Notes: generated by a model not told the origin, from the sequence alone. Shown: positions 1-27,845, numbered from the stretch's first letter. The stretch: 64,000 nucleotides of DNA from Candidatus Dormiibacterota bacterium (GCA_036390825.1 DASWBA010000183.1:29102-93101); one strand, 5' to 3'. Made by a program: numbers and translations.

Positions 1-1
1 G

Positions 2-523
2 CGAATGCTTCGTGATTGGGGTGCAGAGGAAAAATTCCTGCATGTTGTCAAAGGCTTCAATTTCCGCCTCGACGAGATCCAGGCGGCGATCCTGCGGGTC
101 AAGCTGAAGAGGCTGGGGACCTGGACTGAGCTGCGACGCCGCCTCGCCCGCGAGTATTCGAGTCTCCTCTCAGCGACCGCGGTCCGCTTGCCAGTCGAGG
201 CGCGTGACGTTCGCCACGTCTATCACCTCTATTCGATCCGGACCCCGGCGCGCGACCGGGTCCGCTCGGAACTGCACGCAGTCGGTATCCAGACCGGGAT
301 CCACTACCCAATCCCGGTTCATCTCCAGCCTGCTTACGCGAACCTGGGCTACAGCCAGGGCGACTTCCCGGTTTCCGAGCAGGCGGCGGACGAGGTCCTT
401 TCGTTGCCCCTGTATCCGGAGCTGACCCCAGGAGCGGCCGAGCGGGTCGCCCGAGCGGTGGCCCGGTCGGCTGGAGTGATCCCCCGCCCGTCCCCAAGCC
501 AGGCCATGCGGTGGTCCGCGTGA
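2..523 (+). CDS. DegT/DnrJ/EryC1/StrS-family PLP sugar aminotransferase, C-terminal part only (5' end outside window)
   Basis: Frame is open to the window edge. C-terminal-domain motifs of the family are present ([32 protein letters not shown]). Confidence 0.8.
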
Positions 524-530
524 AGTCGCC

Positions 531-1862
531 GTGCATGGGCGCGAGAGCGAATTCGGGACATGGGTCCTAGACGCGAATCGCCGAGTCCGAACGCTTCGAA
601 ATAACTCCTATTCCGCTCGCGCCCGGAGGTCCATAGCCTTGCCGTCAGTGGAGGGTTCTAACCCGGGTGCACTGGAGCTGTCGCGCTCAGACCCGGACCT
701 CGTCCGGCGGGATTGGGACCAGGCGACCGCGCAGCGCGTGCAAGGCGTCCAGCCGGTTCGGGTTGGTGTGATCGGCTACGGCTACTGGGGTCCGAACCTG
801 GTGCGGAATTTCGCGGAGTACCCTGGCTCAGAGGTCGCCCAGGTCGCCGACGAGCGCGCGGACCGTCTGGCCCCTGTCGAACGCCGGTATCCAGGCGTGA
901 TCACCACCACTGACCACAGGGACCTACTGAAGGACCCGACCATCGACGCGATCGTCATCGCCACCCCAATCTCGACGCACTTCGACCTGGCCATGGAATC
1001 GCTTCAAGCCGGCAAGCACGTCCTGGTCGAGAAGACGCTCACGGCGACCTCGGCGCAGGCCATGCGATTGATCGACGAAGCCCAACGACGTCAGCGCGTG
1101 CTCATGGTGGACCACACCTTCGTGTACTCGGGGGCCGTCCAGAAGATCAAAGAGCTGGTCGACGCGGGCCGGCTCGGACGCGTCTACTACTGGGATTCCG
1201 TTCGGGTCAACCTGGGCCTGTTTCAGTCCGATGTGAACGTGTTGTGGGACCTCGCGGTCCATGACCTCTCGATCATGGACACCATCCTCCACGTCAAGCC
1301 GACGGCCGTCGCTGCCACGGGCATTTCATTCGTTCCGGGCCGGCCCATCAACACCGGCTATCTGACCTGCTTCTTCGACGGAAACCTGCTCGCGCATTTT
1401 CACGTCAACTGGCTCGCACCGGTCAAGATCCGCCGGACACTGATCGGGGGCGACGCTCAGATGATCGTCTACGACGACCTGGAGCCCAGTGAGAAGGTGA
1501 AGATCTACGACCGCGGCATCACGCTGGACACCCACTCGGATGCCGTCTACCAGCTGATGGTCGGCTACCGGGTTGGGGACATGTGGGCCCCACAGGTGAG
1601 CCTCACCGAGGCCCTGCGGGTGGAGACCCAGCATTTCGTGGAATGCATCCGGAACGGTGGGAGCCCGCTGACCGATGGCGGCTCGGGCCTCCGGGTCGTG
1701 CGCATCCTGGAAGCAGCGAGCGCTTCGCTGCATGGGGGTGGGCATCCGGTCGAGATCGACTGGGCCGGGACGAATGGCCTCGGACCAAGCCCGGGCCGGA
1801 TCGGACCCGCGCACCCGGTTGGGATACCGGCCGGATTCGACGGCGCCCGAGCCATCGAGTGA
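531..1862 (+). CDS. Gfo/Idh/MocA-family NAD(P)-dependent sugar oxidoreductase (WbpB-like partner of the aminotransferase)
   Basis: Rossmann N-terminus VRVGVIGYGYWGPNLVRNF and HVLVEKTL motif. The longest ORF starts at 531, but the first ~70 codons look non-native. An in-frame GTG at 738 gives the usual family N-terminus. Confidence 0.8.
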   Translation: MHGRESEFGTWVLDANRRVRTLRNNSYSARARRSIALPSVEGSNPGALELSRSDPDLVRRDWDQATAQRVQGVQPVRVGVIGYGYWGPNLVRNFAEYPGSEVAQVADERADRLAPVERRYPGVITTTDHRDLLKDPTIDAIVIATPISTHFDLAMESLQAGKHVLVEKTLTATSAQAMRLIDEAQRRQRVLMVDHTFVYSGAVQKIKELVDAGRLGRVYYWDSVRVNLGLFQSDVNVLWDLAVHDLSIMDTILHVKPTAVAATGISFVPGRPINTGYLTCFFDGNLLAHFHVNWLAPVKIRRTLIGGDAQMIVYDDLEPSEKVKIYDRGITLDTHSDAVYQLMVGYRVGDMWAPQVSLTEALRVETQHFVECIRNGGSPLTDGGSGLRVVRILEAASASLHGGGHPVEIDWAGTNGLGPSPGRIGPAHPVGIPAGFDGARAIE

Positions 1863-2665
1863 ACGTGGACCTGGCCGGGTTCAAGGCCGTCGCGCGCGCG
1901 TTTGGTTTCCGACGCCGGCACTTCGTGCAGGCCCGTTTGCGGTACGAGCGGGCGCTGATCCCGGCCTTGGCGCGACGCCGCGCCGCGACGCTTGGAAGGG
2001 TGCTCTGCTACCACTCGGTAGGCACTGAGGAGTGGGGCGCCAATGACGTCCCCCCACCACTCTTCAAGAGCCAGCTCGATCTGGCGCTGTCGCTCGGATA
2101 TCGTTTCGTACCGGCGGAAACGATCGCCTCCGGGCGCGGGGGTGTGCGGGACCTGGCGATCACTTTCGACGACGGGCTGATGAGCGTTCACAAGAACGCC
2201 GCTGCGATCCTGGAGCGCCTGGATATCCCGTGGAGCCTGTTCGTCGTTTGTGAGTGGGCCGGTGGCAAGCATGAGCGGCCGAATCTCTTTATGGGCTGGG
2301 AAGAGATCCGTCAGGCGGCTGTCGCCGGCGTCGCGATCGGCAGCCACTCGATGACGCATCCCGACTTCGGACGTCTGAGCAACGCCGAAGCGCGGTCGGA
2401 GCTGGAGGACTCGCGCCGAGTCATTCAGGAGCGAGTCGGCATCGCTGCGGACATGTTTGCGATTCCTTTCGGCGAGTCCCAGAACTGGCGCAGCGACTTG
2501 AGCGCCCTGGCAAGTTCGTTGGGGTATCGGACCATTTACGCACAAGCCGTTGACACCCGCACGGCGGGTACGGTGCCGCGCACATTCATCACGCGTTTTG
2601 ATGATGAGCGCGTGTTCAAGGCCGCGCTCGAAGGCGCCTTCGATGCCTGGAAGGAACCCCTGTGA
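1859..2665 (+). CDS. Polysaccharide deacetylase (NodB/CE4-like)
   Basis: ITFDDG and HSMTHPDF motifs. GTG at 1859 overlaps the upstream TGA (GTGA coupling). The ORF-track start at 1583 lies inside the previous gene. Confidence 0.75.
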   Translation: MNVDLAGFKAVARAFGFRRRHFVQARLRYERALIPALARRRAATLGRVLCYHSVGTEEWGANDVPPPLFKSQLDLALSLGYRFVPAETIASGRGGVRDLAITFDDGLMSVHKNAAAILERLDIPWSLFVVCEWAGGKHERPNLFMGWEEIRQAAVAGVAIGSHSMTHPDFGRLSNAEARSELEDSRRVIQERVGIAADMFAIPFGESQNWRSDLSALASSLGYRTIYAQAVDTRTAGTVPRTFITRFDDERVFKAALEGAFDAWKEPL

Positions 2666-3609
2666 TCTCGGAGTCAATGGTTTCAGGCGGTCAAAAGACG
2701 ATGCCGAACTTTCTCGTCATCGGGGCGGCCAAGTCTGGGACGACTGCTCTCTGCAACTACCTCGACCAGCACCCTCAGGTCTATATCAGCGATGGGAAAG
2801 AACCGAACTTCTTCATCGCGGAAGGGCGATCCGAGGTTCCTTACCGGGGTCCGGGCGATCGAGACGCCTTGCTCAGGCTCGATATGTGGGTTTCGACACG
2901 GGAGCGCTACGAGTCGCTCTTTGCAAACGCAACCGTCGAGAAGGCGATCGGCGAAGGGTCGACGTGGTACCTGTACGACGAGGATGCCCCGCGCCGGATA
3001 CAGCAGCACATTCCGGCCGTGAAGATGATCGCGATTCTGCGCAACCCGGTGGAGCGCGCCTACTCGGCCTTCACGATGCTGCTTCGCGATGGGCGTGAGA
3101 CGACAACGGATTTCATGCAAGCGCTCGCCGCTGAAGACAGGCGTGTCCGGTCGGGCTGGGAGCCGATCTGGCACTACCGGAGGATGGGCTTTTACCACCG
3201 GCAGCTTGCCCGCTACCTCTCCTTCTTCAAGGCGGAGCAGATCCGGGTCGTCCTTCAAGACGACTTCACCGCGAGCCCCAGCGAGACCCTTCGTGATCTG
3301 TTCACCTTCCTCGAGGTCGACCAGGACTTCGAGCCGGACCTGTCCGCCCGAGTCAACGTCTCGCTGGTTCCTGTCCATGCCGGTTATCACCGGCTCGTAG
3401 AGGGCCCGAGCCCGCTCAAGGGCATCGTCAAGATGCTCATGCCGCTGGAGGTGCGGCAGCGCGTCAAGGATCGGCTACCGGCCTCACACATGACCAGGCC
3501 GAAGCCGATGCCGGCGGAGGCGCGGGCGATGCTGGTCGAAGTCTTCCGGGACGATGTGATGGCGCTCCAGGAGCTGCTTCAACGCGACCTGCGGAACTGG
3601 CTTCAGTGA
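2662..3609 (+). CDS. PAPS-dependent sulfotransferase
   Basis: 5'-PSB loop FLVIGAAKSGTTAL and 3'-PB motif LRNPVERAYSAF. The GTG start overlaps the upstream stop (alternative ATG at 2701). Confidence 0.85.
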   Translation: MISESMVSGGQKTMPNFLVIGAAKSGTTALCNYLDQHPQVYISDGKEPNFFIAEGRSEVPYRGPGDRDALLRLDMWVSTRERYESLFANATVEKAIGEGSTWYLYDEDAPRRIQQHIPAVKMIAILRNPVERAYSAFTMLLRDGRETTTDFMQALAAEDRRVRSGWEPIWHYRRMGFYHRQLARYLSFFKAEQIRVVLQDDFTASPSETLRDLFTFLEVDQDFEPDLSARVNVSLVPVHAGYHRLVEGPSPLKGIVKMLMPLEVRQRVKDRLPASHMTRPKPMPAEARAMLVEVFRDDVMALQELLQRDLRNWLQ

Positions 3610-3616
3610 CCGGGTC

Positions 3617-5362
3617 ATGACAGCAGTCGCTGCGGCTCTGGCTCATCAGCTCGTGCGGCCGCATGGCGGAGTGCTTGTGGACTTGATGGCCGATCCTGGG
3701 CGAGCCGCCGAGCTCAGAGTCGAGTCAGCCGGGTGGGTCTCGTGGGATCTCACACCACGTCAGCTGTGCGACCTGGAGCTCCTGCTCGGCGGCGGCTTCT
3801 CGCCCCTCCGCGGTTTCCTCGGGAGACACGATTACGAATCTGTCGTGAGCCGGATGCGACTGACTGACGGGACTCTGTGGCCCATCCCGGTGACGCTGGA
3901 CGTCCCGGCCGACGTCGCCTCGAAGCTTGGGCTCGGCGCGAGTCTTGCGCTTCGTGATCCGGAGGGCGTGATGCTGGCTGCGCTCCACGTGAAGGACATG
4001 TGGCAGCCGGATCTTGCAGCGGAGGCGCGGGCCGTGTTCGGCACCCTGGACCCGGCCCACCCGGGGGTCGACCACCTGCTGACCGCGACGCACCCGTGGT
4101 ACGTGTCGGGCAGCCTCGAAGGCCTGCACCTTCCGACTCACCACGATTACCGAGACCTACGCCGGACGCCGGCGCAGCTGCGGTCGGAATTCACGCGGCT
4201 GGGCTGGCGCAAGGTCGTGGCCTTCCAGACGCGTAATCCACTGCATCGCGCCCATCTCGAGCTGACGCTGCGCGCCGCCAAGGACGTCGGCGCCAACCTG
4301 CTGGTGCACCCGGTCGTGGGGATGACCAAACCCGGCGATGTCGACCACTACACCCGCGTCCGCTGCTACCAGGCTGTCATGCCGGCTTACCCCGAGGGCT
4401 TGGCCATGCTGTCGCTGCTGCCTCTGGCGATGCGCATGGGCGGGCCGCGGGAAGCGCTGTGGCACGCGATCATCCGCAAGAACTACGGCGCCGGTCATCT
4501 GATCGTGGGCCGGGATCATGCCGGACCTGGAGCCGACGGCAGCGGCAAGCCGTTCTACGGGCCCTATGACGCACAGCAGTTGATTCGCCGGCATGAAGCC
4601 GAGCTCGGAGTGGCGATGGTGCCGTTCAGCCAGATGGTCTATCTCGAGGACCGAGACGAGTATCTGCCTGACACCGAGGTGCCCGATGGCGCGCGCGTCC
4701 TGTCGATCTCGGGCACCGACATGCGCCGGCGCCTCGACGAAGGCGAGGAACTGCCCGGCTGGTTTACGCCGCCCGAGGTCGCGGCTGAGCTGCGGCGGTC
4801 CTATCCATCTCGATGCAAGCAGGGCTTCGTGGTGCTTTTTACGGGCCTGTCCGGCTCGGGAAAGTCAACGATCGCCAACGTGCTGCTGGTCAAGCTGCTG
4901 GAGCTTGGTGGCCGGCCGGTGACGTTGCTCGACGGTGACATCGTGCGGAAGCACCTTTCCTCCGAGCTGGGATTCTCGAAGGAGCATCGCGATCTGAATA
5001 TTCGGCGCATCGGCTTTGTCGCTTCCGAGATCTCCAAGAACGGCGGCATCGCCCTTTGCGCTCCGATAGCGCCTTATGCAGCCGCCAGGCGCGAGGTGCG
5101 GAAGATGATCAAGGCGGGAGGAGGGTTCGTGTTGGTGCATGTCTCCACCCCGCTCGCGGTATGTGAGGCGCGCGACCGCAAAGGTCTCTACGCCAAGGCC
5201 CGCGCCGGCATTCTCAAGGAGTTCACCGGCATCTCAGACCCCTACGAAGTTCCTGACGATGCTGAGATCGTCGTCGACACATCCGGTCTGACCGCGGCCG
5301 AGGCGGCCCAGAAAGTCATCTCCTGGCTCGAGCGCGAGGGGTACTTGGGCCCTGTTGGGTAA
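3617..5362 (+). CDS. sat/cysC: Bifunctional sulfate adenylyltransferase / adenylylsulfate kinase (PAPS synthase)
   Basis: ATP-sulfurylase motifs QTRNPLHRAHLEL and GRDHAGPG. C-terminal APS-kinase P-loop FTGLSGSGKSTIA. Confidence 0.9.
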   Translation: MTAVAAALAHQLVRPHGGVLVDLMADPGRAAELRVESAGWVSWDLTPRQLCDLELLLGGGFSPLRGFLGRHDYESVVSRMRLTDGTLWPIPVTLDVPADVASKLGLGASLALRDPEGVMLAALHVKDMWQPDLAAEARAVFGTLDPAHPGVDHLLTATHPWYVSGSLEGLHLPTHHDYRDLRRTPAQLRSEFTRLGWRKVVAFQTRNPLHRAHLELTLRAAKDVGANLLVHPVVGMTKPGDVDHYTRVRCYQAVMPAYPEGLAMLSLLPLAMRMGGPREALWHAIIRKNYGAGHLIVGRDHAGPGADGSGKPFYGPYDAQQLIRRHEAELGVAMVPFSQMVYLEDRDEYLPDTEVPDGARVLSISGTDMRRRLDEGEELPGWFTPPEVAAELRRSYPSRCKQGFVVLFTGLSGSGKSTIANVLLVKLLELGGRPVTLLDGDIVRKHLSSELGFSKEHRDLNIRRIGFVASEISKNGGIALCAPIAPYAAARREVRKMIKAGGGFVLVHVSTPLAVCEARDRKGLYAKARAGILKEFTGISDPYEVPDDAEIVVDTSGLTAAEAAQKVISWLEREGYLGPVG

Positions 5363-5386
5363 CCGCAGCGAATTACGGCGCCAGGG

Positions 5387-5914
5387 ATGAGGGTCTCGGC
5401 CAAAGCGGATTACGCGCTCAGGGGCATGGCGGAGCTCGCCCTGCAGGACACGGGCCATCCGGTAAAGGCTGAGCACATCGCCGCGGCCCAGGGCATTCCG
5501 TTGAAGTTCCTCCTGGTCATCATGTCCCAGCTCAAGCACGCCAAGCTTGTCCGCAGCAGCCGGGGCTCCGACGGCGGCTACTCCCTGAGCCGCCCGGCGG
5601 TGGAGATCAGCCTGGCTGAGGTGCTGCGCGCGGTCGAAGGACCGCTGGTCGACCTGCACGACTCGCGGATTGGCGAGCTCGAGCACAGAGGAGCAGCAGA
5701 GCCACTCATCGAGGTCTGGATGGCAGTTCGGACCAACGTGCGCGCCGTCCTCGAATCCGTCACCGTCTGGGACGTCGCCTCGGGCCGGCTGCCGGCCGAG
5801 GTAAGAGGGCTCGCCGGGCGGTATCGACAGGCGCCGGTTTCCCAATCGCGAGGCGCCTCGTTCCCTGCACCGCACAGGGTGTCCCACCCGGCTCCCAGGG
5901 CTAACGTCCCATAG
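5387..5914 (+). CDS. Rrf2-family transcriptional regulator without any cysteine (CymR-like, cluster-less)
   Basis: N-terminus MRVSAKADYALRGMAELA and wHTH segment typical of Rrf2. The translation contains no Cys residues. Confidence 0.85.
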   Translation: MRVSAKADYALRGMAELALQDTGHPVKAEHIAAAQGIPLKFLLVIMSQLKHAKLVRSSRGSDGGYSLSRPAVEISLAEVLRAVEGPLVDLHDSRIGELEHRGAAEPLIEVWMAVRTNVRAVLESVTVWDVASGRLPAEVRGLAGRYRQAPVSQSRGASFPAPHRVSHPAPRANVP

Positions 5915-6001
5915 ACGATCCCGCGGCTCAACTCCATCATTTCGACAGAATCGGTTGAGATAGCCGCTGGGGGGCGGCCTAGAGAGGGGACTCGACGCAT
6001 A

Positions 6002-6910
6002 ATGCAACTCGACTACGAGCTCGCGATCGTGGGCCTGGTCGTGGGCTTTGTGGTCGGGATCACGGGAATGGGCGGCGGGGCCTTGATGACCCCGATTCTG
6101 GTGATCCTCTTCAAGGTGCAGCCGCTGGCGGCTGTCTCATCCGATCTCGTCGCATCGTTCTTCATGAAGCCGTTGGGTGCGGCCGTGCACTACCGCCGGG
6201 GGACCGTGCACCGCGAGCTGGTCCTGTGGTTGATGGTCGGCTCGGTGCCATCGGCCTTTGCCGGCGTCGTGCTGCTGCGACTCCTGGGCCACGGCCACGA
6301 GATCCAGCAGGTGGTCCAGACCGCCCTGGGGGTGGCGCTGATCCTGGCCGCGGCCGCCATCGTAGTCAAGGCGGTCCTGCAGCTTCGCACCCCTGTGCAT
6401 GGTGCCGGCGTCGATGCAGGCCACGCCGGCGAACCCGTGCGCCGGCTGCCGACGATCCTCGTCGGAGTCGTCGGCGGCCTGGTGGTGGGGATGACATCGG
6501 TCGGGTCGGGCAGCCTGATGATCGTGGCGCTGATGCTCCTGTACCCCCGCTTGACGGCTGCTCGACTGGTGGGGACGGACTTGACGCAGGCGATACCGCT
6601 CGTAGGTTCGGCTGCCATCGGACATGTCCTTTTCGGTGATTTCCGGCTGAGCCTCACAGTTTCGCTCCTCCTGGGCGCGATACCCGGGGTTTACCTCGGG
6701 GCGCGGGCTTCAGCCCAGGCGCCCTCAGGGATCGTCAAGCGTGCGATCGCGTTCGTTCTCCTGGCGTCCGGCCTGAAGCTGATCAACATCGGTACCGTCC
6801 AGCTTGGAGTCCTGCTGCTCGCGGTCGCGATCGCCGGAGAGCCGGTATGGGCCTTGATCCGCCGCACGAGCTCTCGGCCGGCCCCACCGGTGGTTGTCCC
6901 CGAAGCTTAG
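6002..6910 (+). CDS. TauE/SafE (DUF81) family sulfite/organosulfonate exporter-like membrane protein
   Basis: Polytopic membrane protein with a duplicated G-rich helix motif (ITGMGGGALMTPILV; MTSVGSGSLMIVAL). Confidence 0.75.
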   Translation: MQLDYELAIVGLVVGFVVGITGMGGGALMTPILVILFKVQPLAAVSSDLVASFFMKPLGAAVHYRRGTVHRELVLWLMVGSVPSAFAGVVLLRLLGHGHEIQQVVQTALGVALILAAAAIVVKAVLQLRTPVHGAGVDAGHAGEPVRRLPTILVGVVGGLVVGMTSVGSGSLMIVALMLLYPRLTAARLVGTDLTQAIPLVGSAAIGHVLFGDFRLSLTVSLLLGAIPGVYLGARASAQAPSGIVKRAIAFVLLASGLKLINIGTVQLGVLLLAVAIAGEPVWALIRRTSSRPAPPVVVPEA

Positions 6911-7208
6911 GGCCGGCAGTGGTAACGCCGGCCGGCGGCCCGGTTGGCCGGCGCCGGGGCCAGCGTCGCATGCGGGGAAACCATGGCCCTCTCCGGGACA
7001 ACCGGCCCGCGGGGGCCCGGGAATCATCGGCCTGGCGTCGCCCAAGTCCCATTCAACTGGCAAGCAGGTCGTTTTACGCTCATCCCGCAACATGAACCCC
7101 GGCGCAGGCAGGCTTCGGAACGGACTGCATCCCGATCCGCTCGAGGCCGGCCTTCCAGATGAGAGCTCATGGCCTCCCCGCCAGCGCCATGCGGCAGCCA
7201 GCGACGCC

Positions 7209-8087
7209 ATGGTCCATTTTCGCGCGGCTCTGACACTGGCGCCCGACCAGGGGATTCGCGAGTCGATTCTCGATGACCTGAGCACCTACTTCGGCTTGCC
7301 GGCCGAGGAGTGCGTTCGGCGGTGCCGTGAGTGGGAGCAGTGGAGCGTCCGCGAGTGGTCCGCCCGGCCCCGCCAGACGGCCGCGGATCTGCGCGACTTT
7401 TACCTGACCACTGCATCGTGGTGCTTCGACCTCCTGTGGTACGCCTATCTGCAGGCGGAGGGCTACGCGTACCCGGTCAGCGTGGCAGCTGCAGCCTGGC
7501 TGCCAGAATCTGAGCGGGCCGGCAGTCACCTCGATTTCGGCTCTGGCGCGGGGGTCACGGCGCAGCTGTTCCAACGCCTGGGTTACGAAACCGACCTGGC
7601 CGACGTGTCGACGTCGCTGCTTCAATTCGCTCATTGGAGGCTTGAACGAAGGGGCGTCCGAGCGCGTTATATCGACCTCAATGTCTCGCGGCTACCAGGC
7701 CACGCATACGACGTGGTCACGGCGATCGACACCCTCGTCCACGTACCCGACGTGTCTCATACCGTCAGGGAGCTGCATCGGGCCCTCAAGCCGGCCGGGA
7801 TCCTGTTCGCCAACTTCGACGTCCGGCCGCCGACACCCGAGAACGCATGGCATCTGTACTCGGACGATCTGCCGTTGCGTTGGGTGCTCCAGCGCACCGG
7901 TTTCGAGCCGATCACCAGCCTGGACGGAATGATCACCGCCTACCGCAAAGTCGACCCATCGGGAGTCGCGCACCAGCTGCGGGGCGTTCGCGATCTGGTC
8001 GCGCTGCGCAGTCCATTACGGCCCGCATACAGGTTCTTGCAGGGCGAGTCCGGCCGGCTTCGCGAAAATGCTGAACGCAGGCGCTAA
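7209..8087 (+). CDS. Class I SAM-dependent methyltransferase
   Basis: Motif I HLDFGSGAGVTAQ and post-I acidic residue, DVVTAIDTLVHV, LKPAGILF. The ORF is open from 6894, but the upstream 105 codons are Pro/Gly/Arg low-complexity. ATG at 7209 (or 7092) is more plausible. Confidence 0.7.
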   Translation: MVHFRAALTLAPDQGIRESILDDLSTYFGLPAEECVRRCREWEQWSVREWSARPRQTAADLRDFYLTTASWCFDLLWYAYLQAEGYAYPVSVAAAAWLPESERAGSHLDFGSGAGVTAQLFQRLGYETDLADVSTSLLQFAHWRLERRGVRARYIDLNVSRLPGHAYDVVTAIDTLVHVPDVSHTVRELHRALKPAGILFANFDVRPPTPENAWHLYSDDLPLRWVLQRTGFEPITSLDGMITAYRKVDPSGVAHQLRGVRDLVALRSPLRPAYRFLQGESGRLRENAERRR

Positions 8088-9354
8088 GTCCAGGCCCGGT
8101 CATGTCACCGGTGGGCCGGCCGCCGGGTACACGCGTACCTTGCTGATCCTCCAATCATCGACCGCGGGAGGGATGGAAAGCCACTGCATTGAGCTGGCTG
8201 CCGAGCTGGGTCGCCGTGGCGCCACCGTAATGGCTGCGATGCCCGAGGAGGCCGCACTCGATGCTGTGGCTGCGGCCTTGTGGCGGAGCGGAGCCATTGT
8301 CGAGCGCATCGACACCGATGCCCGCAGAGGGCGCCTGGCTCAACTCTTTGGAATCGGGCGACTTGCCCGAAGCGCCCGTCGTTTCGGGCCCGACGTGGTT
8401 CACGTGCATGTCGGCGGGGCAACCGGGGGGCTCGCCGCCGTCCTGATCGCGCGCCTGGCGACCCGAGCGGTGGTCGTGGTTACTGAGCATGACGTGCCGT
8501 CCGCCAGCCCAAGCCTCAAGCAGCGCATCAACAGACGCTTGATGGACCGAGCGCTGCACGTGCTGGTGGCGGTGTCAAGGCACAATGCCCACCTTCGTCT
8601 TCAGCGCCTCGGGGCGCCGGCCGGCAAGCTGGCTGTCGTGCTCAACGGGGCGCCTCTGCCGGCCATCTCGCCCGCGGCTTGCGCCGCCAACCGAGCACGG
8701 ACGCGCTCTGAGCTAGGTCTCCCCCAAGACACGACGGTGATCGGGAGCGTTGTCCGGCTCGCGCCTGGAAAAGGCCTGCCCACGCTGCTGAAGGCATTCG
8801 CCATCGTGCAGAAGCGCCTGGACGCTCGTCTCCTCCTGGTGGGTGGCGGTCCGCTCGAGCCCGACGTTCACAACATGGCGTCGGCCCTGGGGATCCAGGA
8901 CAAGGTGGTCACGGCCGGTCACCAACCCGACCCAGGGCTGTTCGTGGATGCCATGGACGTTTTCGTGCTCGCCGTTCCGGTCGGTTCGGGTTCGATCGCT
9001 CTCCTCGAGGCCATGGCTCGCGGCAAACCTGCGGTCATAACTTTCGGGAACGGTGAGGAGGCCGTCGTCCACGAGAAGACCGGAATCTGGGCGCCTCCTG
9101 AGGATCCCGACGCATTGGCGGCGGCGCTGTTCGGGCTGAGCTCAGACCCCGACCTGAGAGAGCGGCTCGGGCTTGCGGCGGCGCATCACGTGCATCAGCA
9201 CTATTCGATCGAACGTTTCGTCGACGACCTCGTTGATGTCTACGTCAGCGCGGCGAGCGGTGTGATCCCCGCCGGCCTGCGGGCCGCTGATCCCAGCGAC
9301 CGGCAGCCTGGCGCGCGGCGGACCTTCAGGCCGGAGGCCCGACCCCTTCGATAA
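8068..9354 (+). CDS. Glycosyltransferase family 4 (GT-B)
   Basis: GGMESHCIELAAELGRRG N-terminal motif and C-terminal E-x7-E region SIALLEAMARGKPAVI...VVHEKTG. The true start may be TTG at 8140. Confidence 0.8.
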   Translation: MLNAGAKSRPGHVTGGPAAGYTRTLLILQSSTAGGMESHCIELAAELGRRGATVMAAMPEEAALDAVAAALWRSGAIVERIDTDARRGRLAQLFGIGRLARSARRFGPDVVHVHVGGATGGLAAVLIARLATRAVVVVTEHDVPSASPSLKQRINRRLMDRALHVLVAVSRHNAHLRLQRLGAPAGKLAVVLNGAPLPAISPAACAANRARTRSELGLPQDTTVIGSVVRLAPGKGLPTLLKAFAIVQKRLDARLLLVGGGPLEPDVHNMASALGIQDKVVTAGHQPDPGLFVDAMDVFVLAVPVGSGSIALLEAMARGKPAVITFGNGEEAVVHEKTGIWAPPEDPDALAAALFGLSSDPDLRERLGLAAAHHVHQHYSIERFVDDLVDVYVSAASGVIPAGLRAADPSDRQPGARRTFRPEARPLR

Positions 9355-10279
9355 GCGGTCCGGCCGGCGCCATGAGCCGGCGGAGACCGGGCCTACCCAG
9401 CAGCAACCGCACACAGTGCGGCGGTGAGGCCCCGAATGCCCTCCGGAGCGCGCGCCGGGCCCCGGGCACGTCGCCGGCCGCCAGCCGGGCCTCCGCGCTG
9501 CCGATGAGGTAGCTTGCGAACCTCCCTCGATGCCGCGACCACGCCCGGAGTAGGGCCAGCGGAGAAGGGGAGCGCCGGCCGGCATGCCAGGCGCGGGACC
9601 AGAAGACGTGCCGGTGCTCACGGACCCGAAGGAGGATCAACTCGTCGTCTGCCCCCGGTGGCCGGGTTCGGTAGCCGACCGACGGAACCGGTATGAAGCC
9701 GATGGGGTGCTTCAGGGCGAGCCTCAAGTGCCAGTCCCAATCCTCAGATCCGAGCAGGCTCTCGTTCTGGAAGCCAACTGAATCGAGAATCGATGCGCGG
9801 GCCACTGTGGCGCCGATCTGCGGAAAGAACGTATAGAAAGCATGAAAGACGTCTTCACTTGCTGACACGTGCACCGGCCATGCCGGGCCAAGGTTGGTAA
9901 GCGTGGGATCAGCATTGCGAACCTGGCTGATCGCGGCTCGAAGTCGAGGCTGAGCCTTCAACAGGGCGAGGTGAGGCCTCAAATGGCCGGGCAGCCACAC
10001 GTCGTCGTCGTCGAGAAACGCAAGGTACTCGCCGGTGGCGGCACGAAGACCTGCATTTCGGGAGGCGGCCGCACCACGATTGGACGCCCGCACCAGCCGG
10101 GCCCCGAACTCGCCGGCGATCAGCCCCGTACGTGAGCCTACCGTGTCCTCGGCGACGATGATCTCGAAGTCGATATCGGGACCATCGAGTGCGCGAATAC
10201 TGGCCAGCGCCTGTCGCAAGTAGTCAGGACGGTCATGCGTCGGAACAACGACCGACACTCGGCTTGGACCTTCTGTCAT
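9326..10279 (-). CDS. Glycosyltransferase family 2
   Basis: VSVVVPTHDRPDYLRQAL, IIVAEDT and FLDDDD motifs. ATG at 10279 overlaps the stop of the upstream gene (ATGA). The longer track ORF (to 10720) runs antisense-free through the neighbour and is not credible. Confidence 0.8.
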   Translation of the reverse strand: MTEGPSRVSVVVPTHDRPDYLRQALASIRALDGPDIDFEIIVAEDTVGSRTGLIAGEFGARLVRASNRGAAASRNAGLRAATGEYLAFLDDDDVWLPGHLRPHLALLKAQPRLRAAISQVRNADPTLTNLGPAWPVHVSASEDVFHAFYTFFPQIGATVARASILDSVGFQNESLLGSEDWDWHLRLALKHPIGFIPVPSVGYRTRPPGADDELILLRVREHRHVFWSRAWHAGRRSPSPLALLRAWSRHRGRFASYLIGSAEARLAAGDVPGARRALRRAFGASPPHCVRLLLGRPGLRRLMAPAGPLIEGVGPPA

Positions 10280-11451: not shown

Positions 11452-12440
11452 CAGACCGGCGCCGCCGCGGTGACAGTCGCATACCAGGCGACGAGCTCGC
11501 TCAGCCCATCCCTGAGCCCGACCTGCGCCTCGAACCCGATGAGGTTCCGGGCGTGCTCGGTGCTGGCACGGCGGCGCGTCACCCCGTTGACCCTGCGTGC
11601 TTCACCGCGTATCGCCTCGAGCTCCGGGTGCCCGGCCGCCTCACAGAGCAGCCTGGACAGCTCGCTGAGGCTCGTCTCGACGCCGGTGCCGACGTTGAGC
11701 GCACCGTCCGTGGCTCCGGACACGGCCGCCAGCAGGTTGGCCCGAGCCACGTCGCCCACGGAGATAAAGTCCATGGTCTGGCTTCCGTCGCCGAAGATCA
11801 CCGGAGGCTGGCCGTGTTGCAGCCGCTCCAGCCACCGGATCATGACTTCCGTGTAGACGCCGAAGGCGTCCATCCGCGGCCCGTACACATTAAAAGGACG
11901 GAGGGCCAGGTACCGCAGCCCGTGCATCTCGGCGTACGCCCGCGCCATCTGCTCGTTGGCGATCTTGGCCGCACCGTAGATCGTCCTGTTGTTGAAGGGG
12001 GCGGATTCCTCTATCGGCAGCCTGTCCGGTTCTCCGTAGACGGAGGCGCTCGACGCCAGGATCACCTTCTCAACCCCCTGCCGGACCGCAGCCTCGAGAA
12101 CGTTCTGGGTGCCTACGATCATCACTCTGATGGCTCGCACCGGGTCCTCGGCGCATTGCGTGATCCGGAGGGCGGCCTGGTGAAAGACGAGGTCGATCCC
12201 GGTGGTGACGCTCTCGACAAGAGGCGCATCGCAAATGTCGCCTTCGACCACCTCGAGTGAAGGGTGGGCTGCCAGCGACGCGAGGTTTTCCCTCCGGCCT
12301 CGGCTGAAGTCGTCCACGACCACCACTCGGGAGGCCCCGGCATCGATGAGATCCTCAACGATCCGGGAGCCCACGAATCCGGCGCCGCCCGTGACCAGCG
12401 CTCGCGCGCCCTTCAACCTGACATCCCGCGCCGTCGTCAT
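11451..12440 (-). CDS. NAD-dependent nucleotide-sugar epimerase/dehydratase (SDR)
   Basis: ALVTGGAGFVGSRIV Rossmann motif and YGAAK catalytic motif. One-nt start/stop junction with the aminotransferase. Confidence 0.85.
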   Translation of the reverse strand: MTTARDVRLKGARALVTGGAGFVGSRIVEDLIDAGASRVVVVDDFSRGRRENLASLAAHPSLEVVEGDICDAPLVESVTTGIDLVFHQAALRITQCAEDPVRAIRVMIVGTQNVLEAAVRQGVEKVILASSASVYGEPDRLPIEESAPFNNRTIYGAAKIANEQMARAYAEMHGLRYLALRPFNVYGPRMDAFGVYTEVMIRWLERLQHGQPPVIFGDGSQTMDFISVGDVARANLLAAVSGATDGALNVGTGVETSLSELSRLLCEAAGHPELEAIRGEARRVNGVTRRRASTEHARNLIGFEAQVGLRDGLSELVAWYATVTAAAPV

Positions 12441-14130: not shown

Positions 14131-15171
14131 TCATGCCGCTCGGCGGCCGGCTCGAGCTGCGTCAACCAGGTGGCGGTGAAGCGCCGCAGCGTACAGAGGC
14201 AGGTCGAACCGTTCCAGCACCGCCTCGCGGGCGTTGGCCCCCAGGCGGCGACGTTCAGCCGGATCGGCCAAGAGCCGCTGCAGCTCCGATCTCATGGCCG
14301 GGGGGTCGTACGGAGGCACGAGCACCCCTGTCTCGCCGTCGATCACGATGTCGCGCTGGCCCTCGGTCGCGGTGACAACCACCGGCTTGGCCATCGCCAT
14401 CGCCTCGAGAATCGTGGTCACGCCCGCCTGGAAGTCGCTGGGGATCAAAGGCACGACCACGACCTCCGCCTGGGCGTACAGCTCTCGCAGGGCGTGTGGG
14501 CTGCGCATGCCGACAGAAATGTTGGCGGGCATCAGCTTGGGAAGGCGGCACGGTGCGGACGGGGAAAAAAGGCTCCCGGCCGCGATCACCGTGTGCACAG
14601 GCAGGTCCTCGACCGCGGCTGCCAGCGTCGCGTAGTCGCGATGCTCACGGCCTGCGGAAACGATGAGTCGGTGCTGCTGCACTGGCTGAGGACGCCAGAA
14701 CCGAGCGTCGGCGTAGTACGGGACGAACGCGGCGGAGCCCTGGGTGAATCCAAGCGCTTCGATTGCGATCTTCAGCTGCGCGCGAGAATGAACGAGGACG
14801 CGCGTGATCCCCATATGGCGCAGCCAACGGAGCATCAGGGGCTTCGACCGCGACGTGAGATGGTGGCCAAGCACCACGTGGGGCCGCGCCGGGCCGATGG
14901 CCTCGAGCGCGATGCCGAGGGGGATGCCGACGTGCTCGCCGTCCGAGAAGATCGCGTCCGCCTCGGCGGCGGCCCGAAGTCCAGCGGCGGCCTGCCGCAA
15001 CGAACGCCGGGCCGACCGGCCCGGCTCGATCTTCAGTCGCGACCAATCGAGCAGCCGCACCCCATAATCGCGCTCGAGCGCGATGAATTCAGGCACCGGC
15101 CTGGTGCCGGCCTCGATTTCGATCCGCAGGTCGCGATCGGCGCTGGCCGATACCAGCATTACGGTCCTCAT
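14131..15171 (-). CDS. Glycosyltransferase family 4 (GT-B)
   Basis: C-terminal motif VVVPLIPSDFQAGVTTILEAMAMAKPVVVT..GETG. ATG at 15171 overlaps the stop of the GH44 gene (ATGA). The track ORF to 15720 is an artefactual extension. Confidence 0.8.
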   Translation of the reverse strand: MRTVMLVSASADRDLRIEIEAGTRPVPEFIALERDYGVRLLDWSRLKIEPGRSARRSLRQAAAGLRAAAEADAIFSDGEHVGIPLGIALEAIGPARPHVVLGHHLTSRSKPLMLRWLRHMGITRVLVHSRAQLKIAIEALGFTQGSAAFVPYYADARFWRPQPVQQHRLIVSAGREHRDYATLAAAVEDLPVHTVIAAGSLFSPSAPCRLPKLMPANISVGMRSPHALRELYAQAEVVVVPLIPSDFQAGVTTILEAMAMAKPVVVTATEGQRDIVIDGETGVLVPPYDPPAMRSELQRLLADPAERRRLGANAREAVLERFDLPLYAAALHRHLVDAARAGRRAA

Positions 15172-16907
15172 GCTTTTGGCTTGGTCAGCCTGACCAGGTG
15201 TACCGACAGCGGCTCGAGGCTCAGCGTGCCGGCGGTCGAAGCCAGGGCCTCCGGAGTGATGTCCGAGGACCCTGGGTGGATCACGAACTGTTGTGCTTTG
15301 TAGGCCGCAAAGCCGGACAGCTGAAGCTGAACGGTTGCGGTCTGCGTGAGGCTTTCGTTGGCCAGGACGAGGTCGATCTCGCCGGTGTCCGAGTGGCGCG
15401 ATGCAAACGCCGCCACCTGGGGGGACCCTGAGGTCACTGGTAGTGACAGGTCCCCGAACCTGGCTCCGTGGCCATCGTAGTTGCGGTAGAGGCGAAAGGC
15501 CGCCGCGGCCGGGGTGTTTGGTGGCGGGTTCGTCCAGTAGTTGGCCATGTAAACGCCCTCGCGGCCAAAAACGCCGAGCACCTCCGCGAGCGCCACCGCT
15601 CCGCTGGCGTCGTATTCCCCGCCGAAGTTGTACTCCGAGATCGCGATTCCGGTTCCTGGATACGACCTGGCGATCCATGCTTTCAGCGTCGGTATCAGGT
15701 CGACGGGCTGGGAAATCCACGACTCATCGACGTAGTTCGGGTCGTACAGGCTGTGAACCGAGCGTATGCGCCGAGCCTGAGTGGCCGGATCGGAGGCGTG
15801 GGCCGAGACTACGTTTGGAGCTTGCGGATAGTAGTGCACGTCCAGGTAGTCGAGTGTTCGCTTGCCGAGCGACTGGTCGTGCTGCTTGAGCTGCAGCAGC
15901 CACCACTCGAGAAACGGTACGTTGCCGTGGGCCTGGCGATCGGCGTGCGTCGCGAAGTTGTCAGTGCCACGGTCCAGGGCCGAGAACTGGTAGCCGGTCC
16001 AGCCTGAGACGACCGGTCCGAGAATCTTCGCCGATGGGTCGACCGCTCTGACCGCATCCGCATAGCTGGTGAACTCTTTGACCATGGCGTCATAGCTGGT
16101 TTCGACCGGGCACACGTCGGTATGGGTGATCCACCAGAGGTCTGGTTCGTTGTCCATCTCGAAGTAGGTGACGCCCTTCGGGCCGGTGCCGAACTTGCTC
16201 GTCAGGTAGTGCACCCAGGCGTCCTGGTAGACAACCGGAGCCGACGGGTCGGGTGCTGTCGCCATCGGCCCGTTGCTGGTCGGCAGCGAAGGCACGCTAG
16301 TCCGGGCGCGATTGGCCGATGGATCGTAGCCCGCGATTGCCTGGGAGCCTGGAGCGGCAGGCGCGCCACCCTGGTTGGGCACGCCGATCGCCATGGTGTT
16401 GTTGTCGTTGTTCTTCGCCACCCAGCCGATGGTCGGAATGGTCATCACCGGCTGCGCGCCCGCGGCCAACGACTGGGAGATGAACGTGTCGGCGGCATTC
16501 CCCGACCCGCCCTGGTTGCGAAACTCCCAATCGCGTCCGGCGTTGTCTGCGTTTCCGTTGTCCCAGTTGAATGTGCTGACCGCATTTCCGCCCCAGCGGT
16601 TGGCGGTCGCCCCGAGCTCTTTGAGGTACGCAGGATCGGCGAAGGCGACGCCGTAGATAAGCGGGCTGATCGGCGACGTGGAACCCTGGGTGTCGATTCG
16701 AACCGCCACCCCGTTCAGGGGCGCTGCAGGAGTTGGCTGCGTAGCTCCGGCATCGGACTGAGAGACCAGACTCCGCAGATGCGCCTCTACCCGCGAGACA
16801 AACCCCGGATGCGCGACCAGCAGGTATGTACCGAAGGCCGAGGCCGTGATCGCCCCACCGGCGAACGCCGCGACCAGCGGTATGAAGCGGCCGCGCAAGA
16901 ACGTCAC
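15168..16907 (-). CDS. Glycoside hydrolase family 44-like glycanase with N-terminal membrane anchor
   Basis: ANRWGGNAVSTFNWDNGNADNAGRDWEFRN, YFEMDNEPDLWWITHTDV and IAISEYNFGG resemble the GH44 signature and catalytic Glu regions. N-terminal TM FIPLVAAFAGGAITASAFGTYLLV. GTG at 16907 overlaps the upstream stop. Confidence 0.7.
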   Translation of the reverse strand: MTFLRGRFIPLVAAFAGGAITASAFGTYLLVAHPGFVSRVEAHLRSLVSQSDAGATQPTPAAPLNGVAVRIDTQGSTSPISPLIYGVAFADPAYLKELGATANRWGGNAVSTFNWDNGNADNAGRDWEFRNQGGSGNAADTFISQSLAAGAQPVMTIPTIGWVAKNNDNNTMAIGVPNQGGAPAAPGSQAIAGYDPSANRARTSVPSLPTSNGPMATAPDPSAPVVYQDAWVHYLTSKFGTGPKGVTYFEMDNEPDLWWITHTDVCPVETSYDAMVKEFTSYADAVRAVDPSAKILGPVVSGWTGYQFSALDRGTDNFATHADRQAHGNVPFLEWWLLQLKQHDQSLGKRTLDYLDVHYYPQAPNVVSAHASDPATQARRIRSVHSLYDPNYVDESWISQPVDLIPTLKAWIARSYPGTGIAISEYNFGGEYDASGAVALAEVLGVFGREGVYMANYWTNPPPNTPAAAAFRLYRNYDGHGARFGDLSLPVTSGSPQVAAFASRHSDTGEIDLVLANESLTQTATVQLQLSGFAAYKAQQFVIHPGSSDITPEALASTAGTLSLEPLSVHLVRLTKPKA

Positions 16908-18169
16908 GCCGTGTTCTCTCCCGACCGCACTCGCGGGGCAAACCTCTTGTTGAGCGCCGCATACGCTCGTTTCCGAAACCTGTCCCACTTCGCGGCCAGG
17001 GTTTCGTGGACGAGTCCATACATCGCGACGGCGAACGGCAGCGGATCATCGAGTCCCCAGGTCGCACCTTCGCGGACACCGCGAAAGGAGCGCAGCCAGG
17101 CTGTCAGCGTGAGGCCGTCGAGCCGGCGATAGTGCGTCGAAGCGACCAGGTCCGCGGATTCATTGATCCAACGCCGACCGTCGCTGGGAGCGATGGCCGG
17201 TACAGGCCGGCCGGTCAGGTCGAGGTACATCGCTCGGGCGACGTCCATCCCGTGCTTGTCGACGAACATTCGGAAAGCGCCGCCGAGCCGGGGGTTTATG
17301 TCCAGCACCTTGTACTGGCCGTCCCGACTGTCGAACCTGTACCCGATGTCTACGATGCCGCGATAGCCGACGGCACGCATGAAGTCGCATGTCGCCTCGA
17401 TGACAGTGCTGTTCTGGCGCAGCTCGCCGAGGCTTGCGATGCCCATCTTGGCGGGATGCTGCCGGATCTTGACGCCGGTGAAAGCCGCGAGGCAGCGAGA
17501 CTGAGAGTCGAAGTACCCGTTGAAGATCCAGACGTCACTGTCGGTTCCCGGTATGTACTCCTGGAACATGACGTTCGGGGCCCCCGGCGACTCCTCCATC
17601 CACCTGTATGAATCGACCAGCTGTTGGGCGTTGTTGGCCACGGCCTTTTCGAGCACGTCGGGCCGGCTGCGGACCGGCTTCAGCATCACGGGGTACTGCA
17701 GGCTCGAGGACGCGGACAAAGCCTCATCGCGGCTCGCCGGAAAGACGATGCGCGGGGTCGGCAGACCGTGGGTCGTCGCCAGCCTGTAGAGGCCATCCTT
17801 GGCGGCGAGCTCTTCCACGAGGTGCAGGGGCACGACTGGAAACCGGAACCAGCGGGCGAGCTCAGACGAATGGCTGGCCACAAAAACCGACCACTCGTCG
17901 GAGCCCGGGATCAGAATCGTTCCTCCGCCCAACCGCCGCCCTGCTGCCACGAGGTCGCCCAGCGTCCGCGCTTCGTCCGGCCACGGCCTGCCATCGAGTC
18001 CTACCGACAGGGTGCCCGCGCAGTACCGTGACGAGCTTGCGGCGCTGGATCCATTGTGCGTGAGTCCGTAGACGCCGACACCCAGCCTTCCCAAAGACCT
18101 CATCACGCCCAGCGGACCCACGTATCGCGGCGGCCCCATGACCAGGACCGCCGGCCTGTCTGGGGACAC
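16904..18169 (-). CDS. ATP-grasp superfamily carboxylate-amine/thiol ligase (COG3919-like)
   Basis: AVLVMGPPRYVGPLGVMRSLGRLGVGVYGL pre-ATP-grasp region, YPVMLKPVRS, VMFQEYIPG, YKVLDINPRLGG. Confidence 0.75.
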   Translation of the reverse strand: MSPDRPAVLVMGPPRYVGPLGVMRSLGRLGVGVYGLTHNGSSAASSSRYCAGTLSVGLDGRPWPDEARTLGDLVAAGRRLGGGTILIPGSDEWSVFVASHSSELARWFRFPVVPLHLVEELAAKDGLYRLATTHGLPTPRIVFPASRDEALSASSSLQYPVMLKPVRSRPDVLEKAVANNAQQLVDSYRWMEESPGAPNVMFQEYIPGTDSDVWIFNGYFDSQSRCLAAFTGVKIRQHPAKMGIASLGELRQNSTVIEATCDFMRAVGYRGIVDIGYRFDSRDGQYKVLDINPRLGGAFRMFVDKHGMDVARAMYLDLTGRPVPAIAPSDGRRWINESADLVASTHYRRLDGLTLTAWLRSFRGVREGATWGLDDPLPFAVAMYGLVHETLAAKWDRFRKRAYAALNKRFAPRVRSGENTA

Positions 18170-18174
18170 CTCGC

Positions 18175-18912
18175 TCAGGCTTCGGCGAGCAGGCGCTGTG
18201 CCCCGGGGAGCATCAGGCTCACCTGCTGGCCGTTGAAGACTGCCGAGGCATCGATGTCGTCGACGCGCTTAAGGACGAACTCGAGATCGTCGTGTTGACC
18301 CGTGTCGCGCAGGAAATCGGCGCTCGGGCTGCGGCGCATCGTGCCCACGCTGACGCCGCGCCATTCGCTGAGCTCGGCCACGGTCCGGTCGTCCTCGGGC
18401 GTGTAACCCTGGCTGTTGAGCATCTCAGCGATCCGTGCGCACGCGTACTGGTCTTCGGGCCGCGCCTTTCCGTGGGTGCCGGCGCCGATCAACGCCACAC
18501 GGCGGTGCGTACCGATGAGCTGGGCGGCGGTCGCGATCATGTTGCGCAGGCAGGCGACGTAGATCGAGCTGGCCCCCCGGGCCTCGGACAGCAGTTGGGT
18601 TCCGGCCGACGTGACCAGCACGATCGGGCGGCAATTGGGCAGCCGCTCGATCGCCGCAGGCGAGTTGTTGAGGTCGAAGCCGTCGGGCTTGATGCCTGCC
18701 TGCTCGCCGGCCAGCAGTGGATCATGAAGCCGGGACGCGACCACGATCGCCTCGGCGACGGTTGACACCGGATAGATCGGATGGCCATGGGCAAGGGCGG
18801 TCACGATCACCGTGGTGGCCCGAAACACGTCGACCGCGACCACGGCGTGCGTGTCGCGGTACTTGCTGACCGATTCGGGCGTGGCGTCGATGACGAATGA
18901 CCGCGGGGTCAT
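18175..18912 (-). CDS. comB: 2-phosphosulfolactate phosphatase
   Basis: ComB family signatures VAVDVFRATTVIVTAL, LLAGEQAGIKPDGFDLNNSP, LVTSAGTQ. Confidence 0.8.
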   Translation of the reverse strand: MTPRSFVIDATPESVSKYRDTHAVVAVDVFRATTVIVTALAHGHPIYPVSTVAEAIVVASRLHDPLLAGEQAGIKPDGFDLNNSPAAIERLPNCRPIVLVTSAGTQLLSEARGASSIYVACLRNMIATAAQLIGTHRRVALIGAGTHGKARPEDQYACARIAEMLNSQGYTPEDDRTVAELSEWRGVSVGTMRRSPSADFLRDTGQHDDLEFVLKRVDDIDASAVFNGQQVSLMLPGAQRLLAEA

Positions 18913-19914: not shown

Positions 19915-19999
19915 GACGCTCGCAGGTTCTGGTGTGAGGGGTCGTTACACCAGGGGTCTAGCGCCCCGCCTTCGGAATCCACCTCGTCAGGAGGTTCAG

Positions 20000-27789: not shown

Positions 27790-27814
27790 TTCATTTCGTT
27801 GTTGTGCAAGGCCG

Positions 27815-27845
27815 AATAAGAAAGGGCGCCGCTGCTGCGGCGCCC
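27815..27845 (-). terminator. Rho-independent terminator after the major pilin gene
   Basis: On the minus strand: GGGCGCCGC-AGCA-GCGGCGCCC followed by TTTCTTATT. Confidence 0.85.

Follow-up and report, generated by a model that had tools for sequence, protein, structure and literature searches.

A putative cassette for self-supplied glycan sulfation in a Wzy-type polysaccharide locus of a Candidatus Dormiibacterota bacterium

We analysed a 64,000-nucleotide stretch of DNA from Candidatus Dormiibacterota bacterium (GCA_036390825.1 DASWBA010000183.1:29102-93101; the whole of it is called the window hereafter), in which a sulfotransferase (ST) gene is followed by genes for a fused sulfate adenylyltransferase/adenosine 5'-phosphosulfate (APS) kinase (Sat/CysC), an Rrf2-type regulator and a TauE/SafE permease of the TSUP family. 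Our results make it rather probable that these four genes form a cassette for glycan sulfation that provides its own PAPS and sits in a polysaccharide locus of the Wzy type. The permease would bring in a sulfur source, most likely sulfate, which Sat/CysC, to judge from its family and its intact motifs, would turn together with two ATP into PAPS (3'-phosphoadenosine 5'-phosphosulfate). The cytoplasmic ST, of the heparan-sulfate type, would then move the sulfo group onto a hexosamine-type sugar of a lipid-linked repeat unit, plausibly one just N-deacetylated by the CE4 deacetylase encoded directly upstream. The Rrf2 protein, which contains no cysteine, would act as a CymR-like repressor that carries no Fe-S cluster and probably binds a predicted operator 42 nt 5' of the TauE gene and would in this way link transporter expression to sulfur status. 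Sat/CysC, Rrf2 and the transporter would make up a sulfur-supply unit in which the transporter can be exchanged (TauE here, an SsuABC-like system in a related locus, L086), and the ST and CE4 proteins would belong to the glycan pathway. Every pairing has a precedent and the scheme works by known principles; as far as could be found, there is no earlier description of the compact four-part combination in which the transporter is exchangeable and a candidate operator is conserved. The features on which this proposal is built are as follows.

1859 to 2665, + strand: CE4 polysaccharide deacetylase (PF01522, 79 bits), with the metal/catalytic motifs TFDDG and HSMTH
2662 to 3609, + strand: PAPS-dependent ST, NDST/3-OST-like heparan-sulfate glucosaminyl type (PF13469, 53 bits; PF00685, 36.9 bits)
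3617 to 5362, + strand: bifunctional sulfate adenylyltransferase/APS kinase Sat/CysC, a PAPS synthase (NF004040, 894.2 bits for an equivalog cut-off of 669)
5387 to 5914, + strand: cluster-less Rrf2 transcription factor, CymR-like in kind (PF02082, 111.9 bits; no Cys)
5942 to 5960, no strand assigned: partly palindromic conserved 19-nt motif TCGACAGAATCGGTTGAGA, candidate Rrf2 operator or promoter element, 42 nt 5' of the TauE start
6002 to 6910, + strand: TauE/SafE (TSUP) permease, proposed importer of sulfate or another sulfur oxyanion (PF01925, 142.5 bits for a gathering threshold of 32.6)

An earlier note on this DNA had recognised an ST, a fused Sat/CysC, an Rrf2 regulator without cysteine and a TauE protein, and all four were borne out by Pfam and NCBIfam scores and by intact motifs. 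The module genes lie on the + strand at the positions given there, tightly packed and with a G+C content at third codon positions (GC3) of 0.79–0.83, in a window of about 65% G+C. Some boundaries had to be redrawn. The deacetylase, previously begun at 1583, most likely starts at the GTG at 1859, which overlaps the stop codon of the upstream GFO/IDH/MocA oxidoreductase (GFO) gene in the sequence GTGA; the orthologues of about 265 aa in the related loci L170 and L086 agree with this start, and the protein has no obvious signal peptide. GTGA stop/start overlaps are thus found at two successive junctions, GFO-CE4 (1859–1862) and CE4-ST (2662–2665), which suggests translational coupling along the operon. 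The proposed coupling of the ST to the deacetylase holds as far as the overlap at 2662–2665 is concerned, but the ST start itself is ambiguous: GTG 2662, ATG 2677 and ATG 2701 are all candidates, and the last agrees best with the gene predicted in the database (P0001, 302 aa) and with homologues of about 304 aa. Whichever start is used, no more than 35 nt separate the deacetylase stop from the ST. Sat/CysC does come just after the ST, at a distance of 7 nt (3610–3616) and not 8 as first counted.

The ST carries a 5'-phosphosulfate-binding motif, GAAKSGTT (residues 8–15 of the 302-aa form), and a 3'-phosphate-binding motif, RNPVERAYS (residues 114–122). In a set of 48 relatives T14, R114, R119 and S122 are invariant and K11 nearly so; E34 and F38, in the catalytic-base motif KEPNFF that aligns with GAEPHFF of 3-OST-3, are invariant as well. 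The best PDB match was 3RNL (1e-63), an uncharacterised bacterial sulfotransferase, and apart from it significance was reached only by 3-O-sulfotransferases of heparan sulfate and by the NDST1 N-sulfotransferase domain. With the profile of the 48-member family, NDST1 was the top characterised chain (1.8e-18), and 3-OST-3, -5 and -1 gave E values from 5e-17 to 8e-13, whereas the small-molecule enzymes SULT1C2, CurM-ST and Teg12 reached only 0.3–1. Placed in this way, as the earlier note had proposed, the ST groups with carbohydrate and not with small-molecule sulfotransferases. The family is large, with 5730 homologues at E ≤ 1e-10 in the public protein collection, the few named ones being labelled Dormibacteraeota, Ktedonobacterales or Chloroflexota.

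The surroundings of ST homologues were also informative. At 40–70% identity they are accompanied by genes for glycosyltransferases (GT) of families GT2 and GT4, CE4, methyltransferase, DegT, epimerase, GT87 or flippase proteins (for example in L082, L085, L086, L170 and L173). L082 reads hexapeptide transferase, GT2, GT4, epimerase, DegT, GT87, cysC, sat, ST, CE4, methyltransferases, GTs, DegT, GFO; L085 reads ST, GT4, epimerase, DegT, CE4, methyltransferase, GT4, flippase; and L173 reads GT87, CE4, GTs, methyltransferase, ST. Homology and synteny thus both point to a glycan as the most likely acceptor of the ST. In this respect the earlier claim of an O-sulfated glycan stands, but its O-position does not follow. 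Indeed, a CE4 gene lies directly beside the ST gene in the window, L082, L104, L155 and L162 and one gene off in L086 and L170, and this recurrent adjacency, together with NDST1 being the top characterised hit, makes N-sulfation a possibility; the profile scores of NDST1 and 3-OST are too close to tell the two activities apart (70 versus 66 bits). It is conceivable, if rather doubtful, that the CE4 protein and the NDST/3-OST-like ST are a two-protein bacterial counterpart of NDST, by which a hexosamine of the lipid-linked repeat would be N-deacetylated and N-sulfated to give a sulfamate polysaccharide fed by its own permease and PAPS synthase. Many more distant loci hold two to four tandem ST paralogues with GT4 genes; such arrays, seen in the metagenome loci L096, L101, L107, L109 and L112, hint that uncultured soil bacteria make glycans sulfated at several positions.

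We then considered the PAPS supply. Sat/CysC has the Pfam domains PUA_2, ATP-sulfurylase and APS_kinase, and its motifs QTRNPLHRAH (204), GRDHAG (298) and the APS-kinase P-loop GLSGSGKST (410) are intact. Its best match in the genome collection is 75% identical, the metagenome-assembled genomes (MAGs) concerned being labelled Streptosporangiaceae, Acidimicrobiales and 'Actinomycetes', so the source organism has no species-level representative there. Sulfate activation genes were found beside ST homologues in three lineages: in L086 the ST is followed by a fused Sat/CysC 80% identical to that of the window, L082 has split cysC and sat genes, and in L141 sat and cysC flank the ST. L086 is the closest relative of the whole module (ST 69%, Sat/CysC 80% and Rrf2 78% identical), and its order is CE4, GT2, ST, Sat/CysC, Rrf2, then an SsuA-family binding protein, an ATP-binding cassette (ABC) ATPase and a permease.

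Two other loci, L169 and L170, are syntenic with the window (hexapeptide transferase, GFO, CE4, GT2, a 151-aa open reading frame (ORF), Rrf2, TauE, GT4, with DegT and epimerase on the opposite strand) and have no Sat/CysC. The 151-aa ORF (L170 3596–4051; L169 324–779) corresponds to an ST lacking residues ~75–225, the deletion being in frame and the 3'-phosphate-binding motif gone. It appears that this relative has lost the capacity for sulfation but kept the Rrf2-TauE pair. Since the pair survives the loss of sulfation, the parts of the module are separable and Rrf2-TauE reads as a sulfur-supply unit, not as glycan chemistry. A similar set occurs in a Planctomycetota MAG (L079, 7951–12592), where an Rrf2 gene (1 Cys), an unknown 207-aa gene, TauE, Sat/CysC and a small ST-like gene are found together. 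By BLASTP, the L079 TauE showed no detectable similarity to that of the window, so this set is analogous and not orthologous; it apparently represents a convergent assembly of the same functions.

The Rrf2 protein also passes the TIGR00738 cut-off (105.7 bits for 73.3). With no cysteine at all, it is without the three Fe-S cluster ligands, and the same is true of 114 of its 120 closest homologues (53–88% identical), which makes the loss of the cluster a clade character; at the site of the IscR/NsrR cluster ligands the clade shares the segment EGPLV(D/N)LHD. The best PDB matches were 4CIC and then B. subtilis CymR 2Y75 (1.3e-12). Sulfur transporters or sat/cysC genes were present in six of the eight genomic contexts examined for the clade (the window, L086, A8i5kyf7, L168, L169/170 and L171). 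The contexts include a JGI contig (A8i5kyf7) with SsuABC-like genes, L168 with a CysPTWA-like ABC system, L171 with sat, cysC, a DASS/CitMHS permease, Rrf2 and an SsuA-like gene, and two unrelated ones. An association of Rrf2 with the sulfate adenylyltransferase gene is already found in SEED annotation (PMC8557817).

When the spacers between Rrf2 and the transporter were compared, a single conserved block stood out, TC(G/T)ACAGAATC(A/G)GTTGAGA, at 5942–5960 in the window. Exact matches to this degenerate pattern lie 5' of TauE in L169/L170 and 5' of the SsuA-like gene in L086, and the 64-kb window has no second copy of the motif even when 3 mismatches are allowed (chance expectation, 0.02). 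It agrees with its own reverse complement at 15–16 of 21 positions. In L168, beside a 65%-identical Rrf2, a 14/21 match (12228–12248, − strand) lies 17 nt 5' of a CysP-like binding-protein gene and is the only one at that level in the 16-kb locus, which is no more than suggestive. The Rfam scan of 1–22000 (E ≤ 1) placed neither a riboswitch nor a leader between Rrf2 and TauE, its sole match being a sub-threshold ribozyme at 9339–9402. Because the one motif in the window lies just 5' of TauE, and because the motif precedes the transporter whatever its type, Rrf2 probably regulates the adjacent sulfur transporter and not the glycan locus at large. The link of the cysteine-less Rrf2 to sulfur metabolism proposed in the earlier note is thus upheld by the clade contexts, but the proposed control of the whole locus is not, given the lone motif 5' of TauE.

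The permease matches PF01925 over profile positions 1–237 of 237 and has an internal repeat, its N-terminal half also aligning to the C-terminal half of the L007 TauE (E 3e-13). We counted the neighbours of TauE in the 77 Sat/CysC loci with enough downstream sequence: Sat/CysC, TauE and a CysQ-type 3'-phosphoadenosine 5'-phosphate phosphatase occurred in that order in 41 of them, all from Acidobacteriota (L007 10001–13363 and 40 others among L002–L081). The TauE of these acidobacterial cassettes is 35% identical over 258 aa (3e-33) to that of the window, which appears to belong to a TSUP subfamily habitually tied to PAPS metabolism. In L086 the transporter slot after Rrf2 holds the SsuA-family binding-protein-dependent ABC system, and systems of this kind can only import. 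There is also precedent for sulfate uptake by TauE-family proteins: one from Pseudomonas fluorescens complements an E. coli cysA deletion, and its homologue in Acidovorax shows co-fitness with sulfate adenylyltransferase (PMC11535334). CysZ of C. glutamicum likewise belongs to the TSUP family (PMC5840216). From the 41 loci, the ABC importer in the same slot and this precedent, the window TauE is more likely an importer of sulfate or another sulfur source than a sulfite balancer. The 'sulfite exporter' label is probably wrong for the subfamily linked to Sat/CysC and CysQ, which would be better annotated as sulfate importer.

The setting of the cassette is given by its neighbours, of which the following bear on the discussion.

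531 to 1862, + strand: GFO/IDH/MocA oxidoreductase, UDP-GlcNAc 3-dehydrogenase-like, upstream operon member (PF01408, 92 bits; NF040723, 1.6e-45, under its cut-off)
7092 to 8087, + strand: S-adenosylmethionine (SAM)-dependent methyltransferase (glycan modification), which co-occurs with ST in related loci
8068 to 9354, + strand: GT4 glycosyltransferase (PF00534, 98.7 bits; PF13439)
18175 to 18912, − strand: ComB, sulfolactate module (ComB and ComA score 142.7 bits on PF04029 and 151.3 bits on PF02679)
18909 to 19748, − strand: ComA, sulfolactate module

A same-strand run of high-GC3 genes spans 5–9354, and the DegT aminotransferase at its head is truncated by the start of the window. The methyltransferase and GT4 genes do follow TauE as first described; the methyltransferase is called from 7092 and not from 6894, which leaves a 181-nt gap 3' of TauE, and a GC-rich hairpin 3' of TauE folded no better than shuffled sequence (z = −0.14). 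Downstream, the opposite strand carries GT2 genes, a second DegT, an epimerase/dehydratase, a hexapeptide acyltransferase, GH44, an ATP-grasp protein, ComB, ComA, a Wzy-like polymerase and a BY-kinase-like ATPase, and it is this glycan gene content on both strands that identifies the setting as a Wzy-type polysaccharide locus. When every ORF of 60 aa or more in the window was searched with phmmer, we found no second ST, Sat/CysC, Rrf2 or TauE, no CysH, CysQ or SsuA homologue and no enzyme making sulfite from APS or PAPS.

GH44, the ATP-grasp protein, ComB (2-phosphosulfolactate phosphatase) and ComA (phosphosulfolactate synthase) stand in a row at 15168–19748 (− strand) and form a sulfolactate-making module within the glycan locus, for which the ATP-grasp enzyme is a candidate ligase. 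ComA condenses sulfite with phosphoenolpyruvate, and as the window has no CysH, this sulfite must come from elsewhere. The sulfation and ComA/ComB modules may share sulfate uptake and activation through a reductase encoded elsewhere, or else be unconnected; the 'independent' module of the earlier note was established neither way. No ComA/ComB genes were found in 84 ST-related loci, the 10-kb flanks of which barely reach the spacing seen in the window, and the pairing of the two sulfur modules is therefore not conserved. Two sulfur decorations on one glycan can be put forward as a hypothesis.

Several observations weigh against a cassette dedicated to glycan sulfation. In about 40 of the 44 ST homologue loci with 5 kb or more of sequence, there is no sat/cysC, Rrf2 or TauE gene nearby (for the sulfate-activation genes, none within 10 kb), and the Rrf2-TauE pair, kept in L169/L170 despite the missing Sat/CysC and the ST remnant, is not strictly dependent on sulfation genes. 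A Sat/CysC 72% identical to that of the window adjoins CysH (PAPS reductase) in L004, an assimilatory arrangement, and this type of enzyme can thus be housekeeping. As regards regulation, Rrf2 scores 74.9 bits on the CymR equivalog NF047409 (cut-off 195) and is not a member of it, the palindrome of the motif is incomplete, and a sigma-70 scan of 1–10000 gave no promoter. Finally, characterised TauE/SafE proteins export sulfite or sulfoacetate. One could thus imagine, and we regard this as possible though fairly unlikely, that Sat/CysC, Rrf2 and TauE are a general unit for sulfate uptake, activation and regulation that lies inside the glycan locus by chance and feeds cysteine synthesis (with CysH and sulfite reductase elsewhere), the sulfite of ComA and the PAPS of the ST; the module would then be neither 'second' nor 'independent'. 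The L004 arrangement would suit such a unit, as would the occurrence of the Rrf2 clade beside general sulfur importers outside glycan loci (SsuABC-like, CysPTWA-like), the persistence of Rrf2-TauE in L170 without ST or Sat/CysC functions and the need of ComA for sulfite with no local CysH, and the B. subtilis yitBA-yisZ operon with yitCD is a precedent for sulfate activation serving phosphosulfolactate synthesis (PMC517825). Chance, however, accords poorly with a Sat/CysC gene wedged 7 nt after the ST within a glycan operon and with its recurrence beside ST homologues in three separate lineages, and the APS-kinase step is needed only if PAPS is the wanted product or if the reductase is PAPS-specific. 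Moreover, assimilatory sat genes usually cluster with CysH, sulfite reductase and CysK, none of which was found within 64 kb.

The two ends of the proposed pathway can also be read otherwise. The TauE protein had been proposed to balance sulfite for ComA, and the family name in Pfam, the characterised exporters C. necator TauE and SafE (cited in PMC5840216) and the presence of ComA and ComB in the same locus would all suit an exporter or balancer of sulfite or sulfonate that protects from, or tunes, the ComA sulfite pool. We hold this to be the weaker reading and an improbable one: the gene context favours import of a sulfur source, as the conserved partners of TauE are Rrf2 and Sat/CysC with no ComA/ComB in any related locus, the equivalent slot in L086 is taken by an ABC importer, the same subfamily stands between Sat/CysC and CysQ in 41 loci, and ComA is 12 kb off on the opposite strand. 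As for the ST, its nearest solved structure, 3RNL, has no assigned substrate, and L097, L118 and L152 show no recognisable glycan genes within the available sequence, as might be expected if the enzyme modified a lipid, a peptide or a small metabolite and its place in a glycan locus were incidental. This appears most improbable in view of the exclusive significance, among characterised structures, of heparan sulfate glucosaminyl sulfotransferases, of the CE4, methyltransferase, GT4, DegT and epimerase genes that related loci consistently share, and of the operon packing with the CE4 and GFO genes. Altogether, self-supplied glycan sulfation remains the reading that we prefer for the four genes.

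Other gene groups were noted elsewhere in the window. Type IV pilus/type II secretion system (T2SS)-like genes occupy 26361–38229 (a PilT-like ATPase, a prepilin with an N-methylation motif, a T2SSF platform protein and a PilB-like ATPase with an MshEN domain) and are followed by three LuxR-type response regulators. A second envelope-glycan-related group at 39641–47689 comprises a MacB-like ABC exporter pair, an asparagine synthase, a GT2 and a PMT_2 (GT-C) glycosyltransferase. A DUF222-HNH endonuclease gene is located at 52829–54019 and a high-GC3 ORF of 1207 aa at 49224–52847; no Pfam match was obtained for three large high-GC3 ORFs (19934–21574, 546 aa; 25198–26247, 349 aa; 47718–49196, 492 aa).

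Should the proposed function hold, the few bacteria outside the cyanobacteria for which sulfated polysaccharides are predicted would be joined by an uncultured soil lineage of high G+C, and with 5730 ST homologues, many in tandem arrays with glycosyltransferases, glycan sulfation may be far commoner in soil bacteria than the literature implies. A by-product for annotation is a large clade of cysteine-less Rrf2 proteins with a candidate operator beside sulfur transporters. N-sulfation by a CE4-ST pair, if true, would be of practical interest for the microbial production of heparin-like polymers, for which NDST expression in bacteria is a recognised bottleneck (PMC13353177).

The cassette can be compared with known systems at each of its steps. 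The pairing of CE4 and ST resembles metazoan NDST, in which an N-deacetylase is joined to a homologous sulfotransferase domain; the window differs in having two separate proteins, and its deacetylase is of the CE4 type, which clusters apart from the heparosan-specific NDST deacetylases (PMC13353177). The TauE of the window shares PF01925 and the association with sulfate-activation genes with TK06_RS10770/Ac3H11_578 (PMC11535334) and with C. glutamicum CysZ (PMC5840216), a likeness of family and context. CymR of B. subtilis and S. aureus, which controls sulfur-source transporters and cysteine metabolism, has no Fe-S cluster, like the Rrf2 of the window; the latter is not its orthologue, and the operator-like motif is unlike the CymR box.

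Dedicated PAPS production is paired with a carbohydrate sulfotransferase in the rhizobial NodH/NodPQ system, for Nod-factor sulfation, and in M. tuberculosis cysDNC/Stf0. NodPQ and the mycobacterial cysDNC use the GTPase-type CysD/CysN sulfurylase, whereas the window has a homo-oligomeric Sat fused to CysC; the acceptors of NodH and Stf0 are a lipochitooligosaccharide and trehalose. M. tuberculosis also has Rv1287, which we take to be an Rrf2 protein, an assignment for which no support was found in the papers searched. Rv1287 is listed with cysD and cysNC, and they fall together in one transcript table (PMC10470581). A parallel for the ComA/ComB side is offered by the yit genes of B. subtilis. 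That system has no sulfotransferase and, through yitB, presumably has a PAPS-reductase homologue, which the window does not. It is like the window in having ComA/ComB homologues (yitCD) near a sulfate-activation operon (yitBA-yisZ), there for sulfolactate (PMC517825).

Whole loci can be compared as well. In Actinoplanes, a fused Sat/APS-kinase gene that lies beside a cluster with a heparan-sulfate-type ST is needed for sporangium formation; the wps-1 cluster of Actinoplanes missouriensis and the adjacent AMIS_7390 share with the window a Wzx/Wzy-type exopolysaccharide locus, a heparan-sulfate-type ST, a SAM methyltransferase, a glycoside hydrolase and the fused Sat/APS kinase (PMC13390465). 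No Rrf2 or TauE is described for wps-1, which has two STs of different families and a GH26 in place of the GH44 of the window; the sulfation of its own product is deduced (PMC13390465), and the likeness to the window is one of gene content. The xss cluster of Synechocystis belongs to a different phylum and has regulators of another type; like the window, it has sulfotransferases in a Wzx/Wzy exopolysaccharide locus, and its product, synechan, is a sulfated exopolysaccharide (PMC8205485).

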